Assembly: GCA_963744915.1 (NCBI GenBank)
Contig: CAVUUY010000011.1
Coordinates: 46,197-110,196, forward strand
Direction of reading: 5' to 3'
From: an uncultured Alphaproteobacteria bacterium
GTDB taxonomy: Bacteria > Pseudomonadota > Alphaproteobacteria > Rhizobiales > Aestuariivirgaceae
DNA length: 64,000 bases
The translations under genes were made by a program, and so were the position numbers. This document shows, piece after piece, positions 28,266 to 60,208 of this stretch (within the stretch, counting starts at the first letter, position 1; each line of letters starts with the position of its first letter). A model generated the notes under the pieces. It saw only the letters and a list, made by a program, of their open reading frames with translations, was not told the DNA's origin and searched no databases.

Positions 28266-29194
28266 ACCGTCAGTCCATCGCCGCTATGCACCGGTTGATC
28301 GCTCCGCATATCCGGCGCACCCCCGTCATCGACATCCATCTCGATGGTCTGCAGCGGCCGGTTACGCTCAAGCTCGAATGCCTGCAGGTCACCGGCTCGT
28401 TCAAGGCCCGCGGCGCCTATGCCAACATGGTGGGCCTCGAGCCGCCGCCGGCCGGGGTGACGGCAGCATCCGGCGGCAATCACGGCATCGCCGTGGCACG
28501 GGCGGCGGCCACGCTCGGGGTCAAGGCACGGATCTTCGTTCCCGAGATCTCCTCGCCCGCCAAGGTGGCGCGGATCAGGCAGGAGGGCGCCGAGGTGACG
28601 ATCGTGGGCGCCCGGTATGCCGATTTACTCGCCGCCTCGGAGGCCTATGCGGCGGAAAGCGGGGCGTTGCCGATCCACGCCTATAATGCCGAGGCGACGC
28701 TGCTCGGCCAGGGCACCATCGCGGCGGAGCTGGAGGCCCAGGCCAGCGATCTCGACACCATCATGGTCGCGGTCGGCGGCGGCGGGCTGATCGGCGGCAT
28801 CGCGGCGTGGTATTCCGGGGCGCATCAGATCCTGGGTATCGAGCCCTCGGGGTGCAATACCCTGGCGGCGGCGCTGGAGGCGGGCGGCCCGGTTTTGGTC
28901 GAGACGCAGGGGATCGCCGCCGATTCGCTCGGCGCATCGCGGCTTGGCGATCTGTCCTATGCCATCATGGCCCAGACCGGTGCCCGCTCCGTGCTGGTCG
29001 AGGACCACGATATCAAATCGGCCCAGATGTGGCTGTGGGACAATCTCCGGCTTCTCACCGAGCCGGGAGGTGCAACGGCGCTCGCCCCCCTGCTGTCAGG
29101 CCGCTACCAGCCGCATCCCCACGAACGGATCGGGGTGGTGATCTGCGGCGCGAATGTGGATCCGGCAACATTTGCGCGAGCGGATGGCAAATAG
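28259..29194 (+). CDS. PLP-dependent threonine/serine dehydratase (serine-racemase-like fold-type II enzyme)
   Basis: The ATG at 28259 overlaps the pdxY end. It has LECLQVTGSFKARGA (PLP lysine), SGGNHG and AVGGGGLIGG. Confidence 0.8.
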   Translation: MLNRQSIAAMHRLIAPHIRRTPVIDIHLDGLQRPVTLKLECLQVTGSFKARGAYANMVGLEPPPAGVTAASGGNHGIAVARAAATLGVKARIFVPEISSPAKVARIRQEGAEVTIVGARYADLLAASEAYAAESGALPIHAYNAEATLLGQGTIAAELEAQASDLDTIMVAVGGGGLIGGIAAWYSGAHQILGIEPSGCNTLAAALEAGGPVLVETQGIAADSLGASRLGDLSYAIMAQTGARSVLVEDHDIKSAQMWLWDNLRLLTEPGGATALAPLLSGRYQPHPHERIGVVICGANVDPATFARADGK

Positions 29195-29311
29195 TGAGCG
29201 GTGAGTAGTGAGTAGTGAGTAGTGAGTAGTGAGTAGTGAAATAGTGAGTCGTTGCACTGAACTACGCCAATCGCTCATCGCTCTTTTCTACTCACTACTC
29301 ACTACTCACCC
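29193..29311. repeat. inverted heptamer arrays: (GTGAGTA)~7 ... (TACTCAC)3
   Basis: Five perfect GTGAGTA units at 29201-29235 have degenerate units on each side (29193-29250). A spacer of about 38 nt follows, then three perfect TACTCAC units (29289-29309), the exact reverse complement. The element fills the gap between the convergent stops at 29194 and 29315. Confidence 0.9.
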
Positions 29312-29314
29312 TTT

Positions 29315-30994
29315 TCAGAACAACCCCTCGATCTGGCCCTTCTTGTCGAGGCCGATGACTTCGGCCGAGGGGACCTTGGGCAGGCCCGGCATGGTCATGA
29401 CATCGCCGCAGATGGCGACGATGAACTCGGCCCCGGCGGACAGCCGGATCTCGCGGATCGGTACCACATGATGGCTCGGCGCTCCCTTGAGATTCGGATC
29501 GGTCGAGAAGGAATATTGCGTCTTGGCCATGCAGATGGGGAACTTGCCATAGCCTTGTGCCTCGAATTCGCGCAGCTGGTTCCTGACCGAGGTGTCGGCC
29601 ACGACATCGTCGGCGCGGTAGATTTCCGTGGCGATGGTCTTGATCTTTTCCCATAGCGGCAGGTCATCGCCATAAAGGGGCTTGAGCACGGGCTTGGAGC
29701 GCTCGGCCAAGGCGACGACATGGCGCGCCAGCGCCTCGGTGCCCTTGGAGCCCTCGGCCCAATGGGTGCAGCGGAACGCCTCGACGCCCTTTTCGGCGCA
29801 GAAGCTCCGGACGATTTCCGCTTCGGCCTCGGTATCGGTGATGAAGTTGTTGATGGCGACGGCGATCGGCAGATCGAACTTGGCCAGGTTCTCGAGATGG
29901 CGGCCGAGATTGACCAGCCCCTTCTTGAGGGCGGCGAGATTCTCGGTCTTGAGCTCCTCCTTGGACAGGCCGCCATGCATCTTCAATGCCCGGATGGTGG
30001 CCACCACCACGGCGGCGGCCGGAGCGAGGCCGGCCTTGCGGCATTTGATGTCGATGAACTTCTCCGCCCCGAGATCGGCGCCGAACCCTGCCTCGGTCAC
30101 AACATAATCGGCAAGCTTCAGGCCCGCCTTGGTGGCCATCACCGAATTGCAGCCATGGGCGATGTTGGCGAATGGCCCGCCATGAACGAAGGCGGGGTTG
30201 TTCTCGAGCGTCTGGACGAGGTTGGGCATCAGCGCGTCCTTGAGCAGGACGGTCATGGCGCCGGGCGCCTTCAGATCCTCGGCTCGGAGCGGCGTACGGT
30301 CGCGGCGGGCCGCGACGACAATCTGCGAGAGGCGCCGCTCGAGATCCGCGAGCGAGGTCGACAGGCAGAAAATGGCCATGATCTCCGAGGCGACGGTGAT
30401 GTCGAAGCCGGTCTCGCGCGGGTAGCCATTGGCAACGCCACCGAGCGAGGCGACGACCGCGCGAAGCGCCCGGTCGTTCATGTCGAGCACCCGCCGCCAG
30501 GCGACGCGCCGCGAATCGATTCCGAGCTCGTTGCCCCAGTAGATGTGATTGTCGATCATCGCCGACAGAAGGTTGTGGGCGGTGGTGATGGCGTGGAAGT
30601 CACCGGTGAAGTGGAGGTTGATGTCCTCCATCGGCACGATCTGCGCATAGCCGCCGCCGGCCGCGCCGCCCTTGACGCCGAAACAGGGCCCGAGCGAGGG
30701 TTCGCGCAGGCAGATGACCGCCTTCTTGCCGATGCGGTTGAGCCCATCGCCGAGGCCCACCGTGGTGGTGGTCTTGCCCTCGCCGGCCGGCGTCGGGGTG
30801 ATGGCGGTCACCAGGATCAGCTTGCCGTCCGGGCGGTCCTTCAGCGTCTCGAGAAAGTCGAGGCTGACCTTGGCCTTGGTATGACCATAAGGAATGAGGT
30901 GCTCGGAGCGGATCCCCAGGCGCTCGCCCACGTCCGCGATCGGCCGCATTTTGGCTGCACGGGCTATTTCAATATCGCTTTTGGGAGCCGACAT
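29315..30994 (-). CDS. fhs: formate--tetrahydrofolate ligase
   Basis: 559 aa with [39 protein letters not shown] and [12 protein letters not shown]. Confidence 0.95.
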
Positions 30995-31118
30995 CGCTTG
31001 TTCCTTCTAATACTTGGTGACTTTTCTACATCGGCGTCGGCCATCGCCACGAATGACTAATCGGTCATCGGCATGAGCACAGATCATGGCAAGACGGGAA
31101 GCGGCAGGGACCGGCTGA

Positions 31119-58226: not shown

Positions 58227-59765
58227 ATGGCGAGGACCAAGGCAAATGCGGGCGAAAAGCCGGCCCGGCGCGCGGCGGCGGCGGTCGCGGCCCGCGCCGA
58301 GCAGGTCCGCTCGTCGCAAGTGCCGGCCGCCGCACCGGCAAAGTCGATGGGCAAGGTGCGCCAGGTCATGGGGGCGGTGGTCGACGTGCAGTTCGACGGC
58401 AATCTGCCGCAGATCCTGAACGCGCTCGAGACGCAGAATCGCGGCAACCGGCTGGTGCTGGAAGTGGCGCAGCATCTCGGCGAGCACACGGTGCGCACCG
58501 TCGCCATGGACTCGACGGAAGGCCTGGTGCGCGGCCAGGAGGTGAGCGATACCGGCGGTCCGATCATGGTGCCGGTCGGCGATGTGACGCTCGGGCGGAT
58601 CATGAACGTGATCGGCGAGCCGGTCGACGAGGCTGGGCCGATCACCTCGCCCGAGATGCGGGCCATCCATCAGCCGGCGCCGGAATTCGTCGACCAGTCG
58701 ACCGAGGCGGAGATCCTGGTCACCGGCATCAAGGTCGTGGACCTGCTCGCGCCCTATGCCAAGGGCGGCAAGATCGGGTTGTTCGGCGGCGCCGGCGTCG
58801 GCAAGACGGTGCTGATCATGGAGCTCATCAACAACGTCGCCAAGGCGCATGGCGGTTTCTCGGTGTTTGCCGGTGTCGGCGAGCGCACCCGCGAGGGCAA
58901 CGACCTCTATCACGAGATGATCGATTCCGGCGTCAACAAGGACCCGCACAAGGATGGCACGGCGGTGGGCTCGAAATGCGCCCTCGTCTATGGGCAGATG
59001 AACGAGCCGCCGGGCGCCAGGGCGCGGGTCGGGCTGACCGGCCTGACGGTTGCCGAATATTTCCGCGACCAGGGGCAGGACGTGCTGTTCTTCGTCGACA
59101 ACATCTTCCGCTTCACCCAGGCCGGCTCGGAAGTCTCCGCACTGCTCGGGCGCATTCCCTCGGCCGTCGGCTATCAGCCGACTCTCGCCACCGACATGGG
59201 GGCGCTGCAGGAGCGGATCACCACCACCCAGAAGGGCTCGATCACCTCGGTGCAGGCCATCTATGTGCCGGCCGACGACCTGACCGATCCGGCGCCGGCC
59301 ACCTCCTTCGCCCATCTCGACGCCACCACCGTGCTGGCGCGCGGCATTGCCGAGAAGGGGATCTATCCGGCGGTCGATCCGCTCGACTCGACCTCGCGCA
59401 TGCTCGATGCCCGGGTCATCGGCGATGAGCATTATGCCGTGGCGCGCCGGGTGCAGGCGATCCTGCAGCGCTACAAGGCGCTCCAGGACATCATTGCCAT
59501 TCTCGGCATGGACGAGCTGTCGGAGGACGACAAGGTGGCAGTGGCGCGGGCCCGCAAGATCGAGCGCTTCCTGTCGCAGCCGTTCTTCGTGGCCGAGGTG
59601 TTCACCGGCTCGCCCGGCAAGCTCGTGGCGCTGGCCGACACGATCAAGGGTTTCCAGGGCCTGTGCGACGGCAAGTACGATCATCTGCCGGAGGCTGCCT
59701 TCTATATGGTGGGCACCATCGAGGAGGCGGTCGAGAAGGCCCAGAAGCTCGCGGCCGAGGCATAG
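58227..59765 (+). CDS. atpD: F0F1 ATP synthase beta subunit (with ~40-aa N-terminal extension)
   Basis: GGAGVGKTV (P-loop) and DELSEDD are present. The strong SD sequence AAGGAAAGG lies before the 58227 ATG, and no SD precedes the internal ATG at 58347. N-terminal extensions are common in Rhizobiales AtpD. Confidence 0.93.
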
Positions 59766-59775
59766 GCGTCGGGCG

Positions 59776-60177
59776 ATGGCTGAGCTCAAGTTCGAACTGG
59801 TGGCGCCGGAGCGGCTGCTGTTTTCCGGCGCCGTGGCGCAGGTGGTCCTGCCGGGCCTCGAGGGCGAGTTCACGGTGCTGCCGCTGCATGCGCCGGTGCT
59901 GTCGACGCTGAAGCCGGGGGTCCTGACGGTGACCGGGCTGAACGGCGAGAGCGAGCAGATCTTCGTGCGCGGCGGCTTTGCCGAGGTCAATCCGGCTGGC
60001 CTCACGGTGCTGGCGGAGGAGGCAATTCCTCTGGCCGATCTGTCGGCGTACAGGCTCGAAGAGCAGCTGCGCAATGCCGAGGAGGATCTGGCCGACGCAA
60101 AGGACGACGAGGCGCGGCTCAAGGCCCAGGAAGCGTTGGACCATCTGCGGCAGCTCCGGGGGTATCTGGGCCGGTAG
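59776..60177 (+). CDS. atpC: F0F1 ATP synthase epsilon subunit
   Basis: ATG at 59776 gives MAELKFELVAPERLLFSG..., 133 aa, the last gene of atpHAGDC. Confidence 0.9.
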   Translation: MAELKFELVAPERLLFSGAVAQVVLPGLEGEFTVLPLHAPVLSTLKPGVLTVTGLNGESEQIFVRGGFAEVNPAGLTVLAEEAIPLADLSAYRLEEQLRNAEEDLADAKDDEARLKAQEALDHLRQLRGYLGR

Positions 60178-60180
60178 CGC

Positions 60181-60208
60181 CCACCCACCACTCACCACTC
60201 ACCACTTT
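60181..60208. repeat. heptamer array (CCACTCA-type, 4 units)
   Basis: ccaccca ccactca ccactca ccacttt starts 4 nt after the atpC stop and overlaps the stop and last codons of pxpC on the minus strand. Confidence 0.7.

Follow-up and report, generated by a model that had tools for sequence, protein, structure and literature searches.

The tandem heptanucleotide arrays described here are, with a probability of roughly 55%, the arms of hairpin-forming inverted repeats that immediately follow the final stop codon of a transcription unit. They were analysed in a 64-kb stretch of DNA (the window) from an uncultured soil alphaproteobacterium of the family Aestuariivirgaceae, order Hyphomicrobiales (Rhizobiales). 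On comparison with related genomes, the organisational unit is the inverted pair of arrays, predicted to form a hairpin, rather than the single array. The position of the arrays and the stability of their predicted folds suggest that they may act as terminators or 3'-end stabilisers.

Results

The window was searched with Tandem Repeats Finder, by direct reading and by a period scan. The scan detected eight period-7 runs, compared to 0-1 for periods 5, 6 and 8-10, and 60 second-order Markov shuffles of the window gave an expected mean of 0.07. The arrays listed by an earlier sequence-only reading are thus real, and they make up seven loci, six of them strong and one weak. No heptamer array was found in the scan of positions 1-29000 or in about 9.5 kb scanned beyond the right end of the window, and 80 unrelated alphaproteobacterial loci (1.45 Mb) contained one period-7 array altogether. 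Since the arrays at 48.1, 55.0 and 60.2 kb are the same base for base in about eight assemblies, including a JGI metagenome contig and an ENA SPAdes contig, and independent short-read and long-read assemblies agree exactly on the arrays, an assembly artefact is excluded as their source. In the literature collection searched, no paper contained the heptamer units of the window. The period, described earlier as strictly 7 nt, is less regular than that; 8-nt units (GGCAAGTA) occur at 40.3 kb, and Tandem Repeats Finder resolves the 55.0-kb array as a 15-nt (7+8) unit in 2.1 copies.

Both arms are present at two convergent junctions. The 29.2-kb hairpin spans the Ser/Thr dehydratase and FTHFS junction. 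Its proximal arm (29192-29249, plus strand), identified by Tandem Repeats Finder and direct reading, is (TAGTGAG)n in 8.1 copies; five of the about eight units are perfect GTGAGTA, and the first TAG (29192-29194) is the stop codon of the dehydratase. After a loop (29250-29287) that includes a small ATCGCTC x2 repeat (29270-29283), the second arm (~29288-29310, minus strand), (GTGAGTA)3 with the unit CTACTCA in 3.1 copies, pairs with the proximal arm and lies 5 nt past the FTHFS stop (29315-29317). At the ChaC and ispA junction, the proximal arm (40302-40342, plus strand) is (GGCAATA)5.7 with one 8-nt unit GGCAAGTA. The ChaC ORF extends 12 codons into this array and stops at TAG 40336-40338. 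The loop holds (GTGAGTA)3.3 (40361-40383, minus strand; unit CTCACTA on the plus strand), adjoining the second arm, and the GGCAATA and GTGAGTA families stand side by side here, as correctly described before. The second arm (40379/40384-40410, minus strand) is of the inverted GGCAATA type and reads GGCAAGTA GGCAAATA GGCAATA GGCAA. From 40384 to 40410 it matches 40316-40342 almost exactly in inverted orientation, irregular 8-nt unit included; this part lies 4 nt past the ispA stop (40415-40417).

The other strong loci carry single arrays or a remnant. Tandem Repeats Finder found (AGGCAAT)3.3 at 35317-35339 (minus strand; unit CTATTGC on the plus strand), 14 nt past the gloB stop (35354-35356); no inverted partner was found in the source genome. 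At the convergent atpC and pxpC junction, (GTGAGTG)3.7 (60181-60206, minus strand; unit CCACTCA on the plus strand) lies 3 nt past the atpC stop, has the pxpC stop TGA (60199-60201) within it, and is unchanged across seven assemblies. The array at 48132-48168 (plus strand), seen with Tandem Repeats Finder and by direct reading, consists of CCTATTG x5.3 and is CTA-rich in sense. It lies 20 nt past the qor stop and 5' of the ffh leader, and the TAG-rich proximal arm is absent. Past the priA stop (55010-55012), an asymmetric putative remnant (55012-55062, plus strand) was identified by Tandem Repeats Finder and folding. The distal array is CCTGTTGCCCATTGC x2.1 (55032-55062), and its first unit pairs with a short proximal arm, GGGCGGCAGG; 55012-55041 is predicted to fold into a hairpin. 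The remnant has CCTGTTG/CCCATTG units and no stop codon on either strand. The site at 33875-33888 (minus strand) was rated weak before, and direct reading agrees, finding two imperfect AGTAGGR units. It lies 5 nt past the phaB stop, is unchanged across six strains, and holds the TAG (33883-33885) that ends a 389-aa orphan gene not found in the sister species.

All six strong loci are transcription-unit ends, three at convergent junctions and three in co-directional gaps of 209-301 nt; divergent junctions and operon interiors of the window have no arrays. The reported distances of 0-21 nt from stop codons were correct. The arrays, described earlier as intergenic, are not wholly so: three array-side genes (Ser/Thr dehydratase, ChaC and pxpC) take their stop codon from the array and the 389-aa ORF ends inside the weak site. 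TAG is the stop codon of 6 of 10 array-adjacent genes, compared to 13 of 50 genes in the whole window. The unit type G-N-N-A-R-T-A yields TAG every 7 nt, with a complementary CTA-rich run as the partner arm, and array runs usually begin at, or adjoining, the stop codon of the gene. The claim that every unit contains TAG or TGA failed at 55.0 kb and in 2 of 5 units at 48.1 kb. Stops occur on exactly one strand in 61/102 units (37% expected), and arrays no more than 15 nt from a stop are TAG-rich in sense by 30 to 2. The upstream stop is in phase with the array TAG in 30/50 cases of a metagenome sample (p ~1e-13) and in 30/77 cases of viral contigs, against 6.4 expected (p ~1e-13).

The same inverted heptamer design fills intergenic gaps in many uncultured high-GC phage contigs, and in bona fide phage structural modules inverted heptamer pairs occupy many or most of these gaps. 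Among adjacent array pairs in 80 high-GC viral contigs, 27/45 were inverted, and the TAG-rich arm came first in 15 cases versus 5. Single phage contigs reuse the same unit families at different loci.

Folding predicted stable structures at the two paired loci of the window. The 29.2-kb hairpin reached -62.5 kcal/mol (z -7.7) on the plus strand and -58.9 kcal/mol (z -6.6) on the minus strand, and the two strands of the 40.3-kb hairpin reached -51 and -61.4 kcal/mol (z -5.8 and -6.5). The single arrays of the window gave no stable hairpin comparable to these and were markedly unstructured (z +1.2 to +2.1, the highest value being that of the 48.1-kb array RNA). No stable fold was obtained for two array-free convergent junctions, two co-directional gaps or the weak 33.9-kb site. 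Unlike textbook intrinsic terminators, the hairpins have stems of 21-30 bp and loops that reach about 50 nt, and they lack a proper U-tract; four U residues follow the stem at 29.2 kb, three at 40.3 kb and none in several orthologues. A terminator scan predicted no terminator at the window arrays. In a G.U asymmetry test of 35 co-directional pairs, the sense strand was not preferred (16 versus 19, with 85 G.U pairs per strand); therefore, selection could operate at the level of DNA, or be absent.

Sister species with 94%, 92% and 87% protein identity (computed on FTHFS or PriA) were compared. An inverted heptamer-array pair was present in every sister species examined at 5/6 junctions; these include qor/ffh (3/3 species), priA/atpH (3/3, degenerate in the 92% species) and atpC/pxpC, where the pairs are full. 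The gloB junction has an inverted pair in the 92% species and an ordinary hairpin in the 94% species. The sister-species hairpins begin at the stop codon. We folded 16 of them, of which 15 were heptamer hairpins and one was the ordinary gloB hairpin (z -2.3). Among the heptamer hairpins, 12/15 had z scores of -3.75 to -7.9; the three weaker ones (z -0.9 to -2.0) were at qor/ffh and priA/atpH of the 92% and 87% species, where three of the four hairpins were folded. Array position is conserved at 6/6 junctions, and all four species share a GGCAATA-type array at the qor junction. Unit sequence varies among species and strains (GTGAGTA, GGCAATA, GGCAGTA, GCGAATA) while the arms remain complementary. 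The FTHFS junction has GTGAGTA, GGCAGTA or GCGAATA, the latter two in strains with identical FTHFS protein. Heptamers were not found in relatives at 86% and ~80% FTHFS identity, and in these outgroups atpC and FTHFS are followed by hairpin-plus-T-run terminators, where the clade of the window has arrays.

In the source genome, one arm is gone at three or four of the six loci and no replacement hairpin is present; therefore, any constraint must be weak. Because the sister species carry pairs at the corresponding junctions, the single arrays of the window are most simply read as decayed hairpins, and those after qor and priA as surviving distal arms of decayed pairs. The arrays after qor and priA, listed earlier as exceptions to the orientation of the stop-rich strand as sense strand of the upstream gene, appear on this comparison to be distal arms that have lost their proximal partner.

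The suggestion of slippage-prone sites was supported by unit-number polymorphism. The number of perfect units in the 29.2-kb array is 3, 4 or 5 depending on the strain, and in the cleanest strain comparison this array accounts for 14/15 gap bases over 21.7 kb. One strain has an additional unit in the 40384-40410 arm, and whole-unit differences also occur among sister strains in non-ENA assemblies (JGI metagenome, Logan assemblies and an NCBI MAG).

Discussion

The main competitor of the hairpin-arm reading is that the arrays are non-functional by-products of mutation: slippage would act where insertions are tolerated, past stop codons, partners would arise by intrastrand template switching, and hairpins would be a mutational attractor. 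Among long simple sequence repeats, heptamers are the most frequent class in many bacteria, and polymerase slippage has been proposed as their origin, according to the parts of PMC4679880 and PMC4692102 that summarise Mrazek et al. 2007. The missing G.U strand asymmetry, the ease with which the source genome loses arms and the rapid shifts in copy number point the same way. However, all six junction positions are kept over three sister species despite sequence turnover, complementarity of the arms survives unit replacement, arrays stand where the outgroups have canonical terminators, and nearly all units keep TAG, with the excess of one-strand stops noted above. We regard this explanation as possible but unlikely. 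Mobility was also weighed; here a RAYT, an IS200-type transposase or some other dedicated enzyme would spread the doublets to new gene ends. REPINs are likewise extragenic inverted doublets at 3' ends, copying would account for the reuse of few unit families at many loci, in the window and within single phage contigs, and many heptamer units contain GTAG, which we take to be the conserved head of REP sequences. We nevertheless consider a REPIN-like element improbable: the window loci have no conserved flanks and no defined element ends, unit number is variable and unit types are mixed inside one array, and no Y1-transposase domain was found among the gene calls in ~95 kb of the clade. The related units retained by orthologous arrays, as at qor, fit vertical descent.

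Binding of a protein with a 7-nt register, such as a regulator or a cold-shock-domain protein that binds RNA or single-stranded DNA, would make the arrays regulatory rather than terminating. The unusually unstructured single arrays agree with this, as do a reported CspB footprint of 7 nt per molecule, discussed in a passage of PMC4679880, and the proposal that heptamer repeats of Nostoc regulate recF and recO via an unidentified partner (bioRxiv 10.1101/2022.06.06.494920). A sequence-specific reader is hard to square with units that differ where the neighbouring proteins are identical, pairing in a double-stranded stem is the ancestral state, and the arrays follow stop codons instead of lying in promoters or 5' leaders; we thus hold such a role to be quite improbable. 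The proposal of a selected three-frame stop trap, providing TAG/TGA in all frames past the ORF in a GC-rich genome with rare out-of-frame stops, fared worst. The link to stop codons on which it draws is real and strong, in the phase-locking, the orientation bias close to stops, the excess of one-strand stops and the TAG usage of array-adjacent genes. Phase-locking is expected anyway if the stop codon seeds the array, which is the simpler explanation, and a systematic bacterial study found additional in-frame downstream stops avoided, not enriched, with no selection for extra stops (PMC6764699). One to three units would suffice for a trap, leaving five to eight units and a complementary arm unexplained, and the distal arms and decayed arrays at 48.1 and 55.0 kb are retained though stop-free in sense. 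We therefore judge a selected trap very unlikely.

Replication slippage favours 7-nt units. If the arrays are hairpin arms, slippage would lengthen and shorten them, and point changes would propagate through the whole array. Complementarity of the arms might be held by selection for pairing, by templated repair within the hairpin, or by the two together. The link to stop codons would be a by-product, in which a unit containing a stop duplicates, or abuts the ORF, without lengthening the protein. Slippage alone leaves the recurrence of the same few units across the loci of one genome unexplained.

The proposal of an STRR-like dispersed family was supported: the arrays belong to the known heptanucleotide-repeat class (STRR or long simple sequence repeats), as a fast-evolving hairpin variant. 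The suggested function as bidirectional terminator or 3' stabiliser is consistent with the relatives' terminator sites and the stable paired folds. In this clade, the paired form may serve as a 3'-end structure of the transcript, acting as a bidirectional or weak factor-independent terminator, as an exonuclease block, or as both.

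Heptanucleotide arrays in the window and in independent assemblies

A sequence-only reading had proposed tandem heptanucleotide arrays at seven loci, designated here by window position as 29.2, 33.9 (weak), 35.3, 40.3, 48.1, 55.0 and 60.2 kb. All of these were recovered using Tandem Repeats Finder and direct reading. In a period scan, eight period-7 runs were found in the window against a mean of 0.07 in second-order Markov shuffles, and periods 5, 6 and 8-10 gave zero to one run. The heptanucleotide runs were thereby longer and more frequent than chance, as is typical of long simple sequence repeats with units of 5-11 nt. 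The two unit families were also as described, with CCYRTTG/GGCAATA at 35.3, 40.3, 48.1 and 55.0 kb and YACTCAC/GTGAGTR at 29.2, 40.3 and 60.2 kb; the 33.9-kb site consisted of two imperfect units only. GGCAATA and GTGAGTA are non-palindromic and contain at most GG, with no run of three or more G. The claim of a strict 7-nt period held for the tandem unit but not for every repeat, as occasional 8-nt units occurred at 40.3 kb and a 15-nt (7+8) repeat at 55.0 kb. The claim of a stop codon in every unit failed at 55.0 kb, where the array was stop-free on both strands.

The six to seven loci were all within 31 kb, and the other ~42 kb examined contained no arrays; none were found at 1-29000 of the window or in ~9.5 kb to its right. 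Rfam showed no known RNA family at the arrays. A MITE-like element was ruled out by direct reading, in which conserved flanks were not seen at the array loci. A coding tandem repeat at 19760-19888 (+), inside the ORF 19109-19894, has periods of 6, 33 and 45 and is CCGGCC- and proline-alanine-rich; it is unrelated to the heptamers.

The window region was recovered from ~10 metagenome assemblies by exact-protein look-ups. The 48.1-, 55.0- and 60.2-kb arrays were identical across those assemblies, JGI and SPAdes contigs included, and were not the product of a single assembly. Chance or assembly artefact was rejected, given identical arrays in independent assemblies and the excess of runs over the shuffles. 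The longest perfect array, at 29.2 kb, had 5, 4 or 3 GTGAGTA units depending on the strain. Compared with L001, a locus from the cleanest assembly, only two indels were present in 21.7 kb, and one was a 14-nt array difference. One strain had an extra unit in the 40.3-kb array. Whole-unit length differences were also seen among strains of the sister groups described below, in a JGI metagenome contig, Logan assemblies and an NCBI MAG: one group had arrays of 3.3, 4.3 and 5.3 units, and in another a 4+3.7 array contrasted with a 3+4.7 one. Some ENA assemblies were noisy, with many indels, and part of the messy length variation may be error. Polymorphism by whole units is a property of long simple sequence repeats, and it agrees with the earlier suggestion of slippage-prone variable sites. 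These results demonstrate that the arrays are real and variable.

Location at the ends of transcription units

All array loci were transcription-unit ends, with none inside operons and none at divergent junctions. The arrays lay 0-21 nt past stop codons at all loci, and the next start was ~160-265 nt away. At 29.2 kb, where the Ser/Thr dehydratase and FTHFS genes converge (the FTHFS/PALP junction), the first TAG of the array was the dehydratase stop. At 40.3 kb, between the convergent ChaC and ispA genes, 12 ChaC codons were inside the array, and at 60.2 kb, between the convergent atpC and pxpC genes, the pxpC TGA was within it. The 35.3-kb array was 3' of gloB in a co-directional gap of 301 nt, the 48.1-kb array followed qor before the ffh leader (226-nt gap), and the 55.0-kb array followed priA before the atp operon (209-nt gap). 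Among array-adjacent window genes, 6/10 used TAG as the stop, versus 13/50 window genes overall. The Rfam ffh sRNA/leader motif RF01793 was detected just 5' of ffh at 48257-48308 (+) with 50.6 bits, ~90 nt downstream of the 48.1-kb array.

Folding of the inverted pairs

We computed the folds of the arrays and of array-free gaps. In an inverted pair, a TAG-rich proximal arm next to the stop codon is followed by a complementary CTA-rich distal arm. The pair at 29.2 kb gave -62.5 and -58.9 kcal/mol (z -7.7 and -6.6), and the pair at 40.3 kb gave -51 and -61.4 kcal/mol (z -5.8 and -6.5). Single arrays were unstructured (z at least 0), and nothing comparable folded at two array-free convergent junctions, two co-directional gaps or the weak 33.9-kb site. 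An irregular 8-nt unit in the first arm at 40.3 kb was present in the second arm as well, which indicates that the arms are copies of each other.

A simple terminator scan found no sites at the arrays. Four U followed the 29.2-kb stem and three U the 40.3-kb stem, with loops of 8 to ~50 nt; the GC-rich stem, short loop and direct U-tract of an intrinsic terminator were not found together at the arrays. A test of RNA-level selection by sense/antisense G.U asymmetry was negative. In the gap between the IalB-like gene and rlmN, at 46370-46470 (-), there was an ordinary hairpin flanked by runs of A and of U, AAAAAGGCUCG...CGGGUUUUUC (z -2.3). This terminator-like hairpin indicates that the window genome also uses conventional terminators.

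Conserved junctions and changing units in related species

FTHFS and PriA homologues with source-given taxon names place the window in Aestuariivirgaceae, Hyphomicrobiales. We compared syntenic loci from four related genome groups. Protein identity to the window was 94% for FTHFS and 92% for PriA in sister 1 (L342-347, L353-354; the 94% species), 92% for both in sister 2 (L348-351, L355-356; the 92% species), 87% for PriA in sister 3 (L357), and 86% for FTHFS and 69% for PriA in the outgroup (L352, L358). In every sister examined, an inverted heptamer pair starting at or next to the stop codon was present at five of the six array junctions. At the sixth, gloB, a heptamer pair was present in the 92% species, whereas the hairpin of the 94% species was an ordinary one without heptamers. 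When 16 hairpins from the sisters were folded, 12 of the 15 heptamer ones gave z of -3.75 to -7.9; the weaker ones (z -0.9 to -2.0) were L355 priA, L357 priA and L357 qor, and the ordinary gloB hairpin gave z -2.3.

The unit at the FTHFS/PALP junction was GTGAGTA in the window and the 94% species. In three 92%-group strains it was GGCAGTA, and an array TAG now serves as the FTHFS stop; in a fourth strain of this group, with an identical FTHFS protein, it was GCGAATA. Each replacement was accompanied by the complementary unit in the partner arm. This comparison shows that the units turn over at kept junction positions and that the two arms change jointly.

The sequence-only reading had stated that the stop-rich strand is the sense strand of the gene ending upstream, with qor and priA as exceptions. 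In the sisters, the pairs at both qor/ffh and priA/atpH were TAG-rich in the proximal arm and CTA-rich in the distal one. The window kept the distal arm alone at qor, and at priA it also kept a stub of the proximal arm, GGGCGGCAGG, which pairs with the first unit. The exceptions to the rule are explained as retained distal arms of pairs seen in the sisters. At atpC/pxpC the window kept only the pxpC-side arm. These results demonstrate that the ancestral and typical form is the inverted pair, which makes a hairpin where a transcription unit ends.

No heptamers were found in the outgroup or in two ~80% relatives (L127, L128), in which atpC and FTHFS are followed by classical hairpin-plus-T-run terminators. 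As an unbiased control, 80 FTHFS loci of other species among the matches listed, mostly from Alphaproteobacteria and amounting to 1.45 Mb, held a single period-7 array between them. The presence of arrays in the sisters and their absence from the outgroup and the ~80% relatives indicate a trait of a shallow clade, in which position and hairpin are conserved and sequence is not.

Several further differences were observed between the window and the sisters. The array at 40303-40338 (+) encodes the C-terminal 9-12 residues of ChaC (AIGNRQVGNRQ). The window version of this protein has 181 aa, compared with 176 aa in strain L002 and the 92% sister (L348) and 182 aa in the 94% sister. As ChaC length differs with the array, array changes rewrite the protein C-terminus. 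Between gloB and phaB, a 389-aa ORF at 33883-35052 (-) had no Pfam or NCBIfam match and is within a low-GC stretch (34000-36000, GC 0.587). It was missing from all examined sister species and the outgroup, where gloB is immediately followed by phaB (by an EamA gene in the outgroup), and it looks like a recent insertion. Heptamer runs in the same orientation flank the inserted region, at 33875-33888 over the ORF stop and at 35317-35339, ~265 nt 5' of its start. In L355 (92% sister, qor/ffh), the heptamer hairpin holds in its loop an inserted GC-rich element of ~150 nt, at ~5190-5330. This element has long inverted repeats of its own, CCCCTCGTGGGGAGGGG ... CCAGGGGGAGGGG, and may be a different small palindromic repeat element.

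Arrays in metagenome and viral contigs and their link to stop codons

We also searched metagenome contigs with (GGCAATA)3 and viral contigs with a degenerate three-unit pattern, which matched at least 120 stretches; the counts below are samples, taken among the matches listed in either search. Confinement of the arrays to the window was not observed. Among the matches listed, 80 high-GC viral contigs had 205 period-7 arrays with many units, and (GGCAATA)3 occurred in metagenome contigs at all GC contents from 0.3 to 0.7. Among the metagenome contigs (L222-L341), the unit was also common in those of low GC, e.g., L240 and L290 (GC 0.43-0.44), which indicates that it is not specific to the Aestuariivirgaceae clade. 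Some of these low-GC contigs had 6-7 period-7 arrays each and may be cyanobacterial.

In the viral contigs, 27/45 adjacent array pairs were inverted, with the TAG-rich arm first in 15 versus 5. Several of these contigs were true head and tail modules of phages, and many, if not most, of their intergenic gaps contained such hairpins. Two IMG/VR contigs, L040 and L066 (GC 0.66-0.67), had head-tail modules (adaptor, tail terminator, tape measure) in which many arrays were inverted pairs filling co-directional gene gaps; L040 had 18 period-7 arrays in 9.9 kb, with at least five different units among them. For the hosts of the array-rich phage contigs, no nucleotide match was found, and the proteins had distant matches only, scattered across numerous host genera; contig L024 was Rhizobiaceae-like. 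Integron attC-like cassettes were considered for the dense phage loci and rejected, because the genes there make up normal head and tail modules and because the loci in the window lie next to housekeeping genes.

Arrays within 15 nt of a gene stop were TAG-rich in the sense strand in 30 versus 2 cases in the sampled contigs. In the metagenome sample, the stop was in phase with an array TAG in 30/50 cases (p about 1e-13) and was itself TAG in 29/50. The stop recurred in phase in 30/77 cases of the viral sample, compared with 6.4 expected. Among arrays outside the search pattern, 61/102 units had stops on exactly one strand, against 37% expected. Replication strand was rejected as the determinant of orientation: the single arrays of the window are all CTA-rich on the plus strand, but array pairs in viral contigs agreed in strand in only 127 versus 108 cases. 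These results demonstrate that the arrays are tied to stop codons.

Relationship to known repeats and terminators

The units GGCAATA and GTGAGTA were not found in the literature searched, nor were heptamer-array hairpins at gene ends. STRR units are CCCCAGT, TTGGTCA and CAACAGT, in heterocystous cyanobacteria, and differ from GGCAATA/GTGAGTA in Aestuariivirgaceae. The window arrays also differ from STRR in forming inverted pairs that are tied to a stop codon where a transcription unit ends, which to our knowledge have not been described for STRR. In heterocystous cyanobacteria, STRR are tandem heptanucleotides of a few unit families scattered over numerous loci, most of them intergenic, and their copy number varies enough to fingerprint strains (Mazel et al. 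1990, cited in PMC4692102). The likeness that had been proposed fits at the level of class, with tandem heptamers and strain-variable copy number; unit, taxon and architecture differ.

Heptanucleotide long simple sequence repeats have been reported as over-represented and mainly intergenic in scattered lineages, with polymerase slippage as their proposed source (Mrazek, Guo and Shah 2007, via PMC4679880 and PMC4692102). As summarised in those papers, that work is a statistical survey and does not deal with pairing into hairpins, with the phase of stop codons or with positions that are kept as units turn over. The GGGAATC/GGGGAYT arrays of Xanthomonas and Nostoc are intergenic, and some are convergent inverted pairs (PMC4692102). 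However, these have G-tracts forming G-quadruplexes, whereas the window units carry TAG, contain no G-runs and form duplex stems of the usual kind. In marine Beggiatoaceae, cyanobacteria and Bacteroidetes, TAACTGA repeats likewise have stops in all three frames when read in one direction and lack them in the reverse direction, and some copies overlap the upstream stop (PMC4679880). They lie mostly just 5' of start codons and are hardly ever inverted, with one indirect repeat among 170 sets (PMC4679880), whereas the window arrays are 3' of stops and typically paired. Neither the TAACTGA unit nor a location mainly just upstream of starts was found here.

REP, BIME and REPIN elements are extragenic, at 3' ends and between convergent genes, and have been proposed to stabilise mRNA 3' ends or terminate transcription. 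The arrays share with them inverted doublets that give long hairpins, genome-specific families and conserved positions. However, REPs are fixed imperfect palindromes of 20-40 nt, and the arrays are tandem non-palindromic 7-mers without defined ends that change in place by whole units. No RAYT (Y1 transposase) was found among the Pfam-annotated gene calls in ~95 kb of this clade. With bidirectional intrinsic terminators the arrays have in common a single hairpin serving two converging genes, but their stems are much longer (21-30 bp), their loops large and their U-tracts short or absent. The arrays thus belong to the class of dispersed heptanucleotide repeats; REPINs and bidirectional terminators are alike in site and fold, and their defining features are missing from the arrays.

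Interpretation and significance

Slippage would be the engine of array change, which fits the whole-unit polymorphism and the heptamer-repeat excess reported by Mrazek (2007). The recurrence of the same few units at many loci is consistent with descent from related ancestral arrays and mutational drift, and the GGCAATA-type array at the qor junction of all four species favours such descent. Copying between loci, or a trans-acting factor, might also produce this recurrence.

The position of the paired arrays, their stability and their replacement of ordinary terminators of relatives at the same sites lead us to infer a putative role as a terminator or 3'-end stabiliser. The proposal of a bidirectional terminator or 3' stabiliser is supported to that extent; the short or absent U-tracts, the lack of G.U asymmetry and the loss of one arm at three or four loci of the window genome weigh against a firm claim of function. 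A three-frame stop trap under selection, which the sequence-only reading had also offered, is unlikely, because the distal arms are stop-free, the arrays greatly exceed the length that a trap would require, and bacteria are not seen to be selected for additional stops downstream (PMC6764699). The earlier interpretation was thus supported in part and sharpened. A broader proposal is that stop-codon-anchored heptamer-array hairpins, seen in an Aestuariivirgaceae clade and in many uncultured high-GC phages, are an unrecognised, widespread class of gene-end element that has dedicated upkeep instead of passive slippage and replaces classical intrinsic terminators in these genomes; we consider this improbable. 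Such upkeep could come from repair templated by the hairpin, from gene conversion among the loci or from a trans-acting reader of the 7-nt register.

Families of dispersed heptamer repeats, such as STRR and its relatives, have been on record since 1990 and have no agreed function. The general class is therefore not new, but the comparative pattern was unexpected and is testable. This clade offers a clean comparative picture, in which the same junctions keep a hairpin over several species as unit, copy number and arm presence change. The ordinary terminators of the outgroup at two of the same sites lead to a testable hypothesis, that array hairpins act as terminators or 3' stabilisers. Arrays are hotspots of assembly and annotation error at gene ends and could be used as strain markers, and among the matches listed they are common in phage contigs with an unassigned host. 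The phase-lock between array and stop holds in metagenome and viral samples of widely varying GC, which shows that a microsatellite can provide a stop codon or take the place of one and can alter a protein C-terminus, as in ChaC here. The clade is also a natural system for studying the effects of slippage, and of correction of one arm by the other, on RNA or DNA structures.
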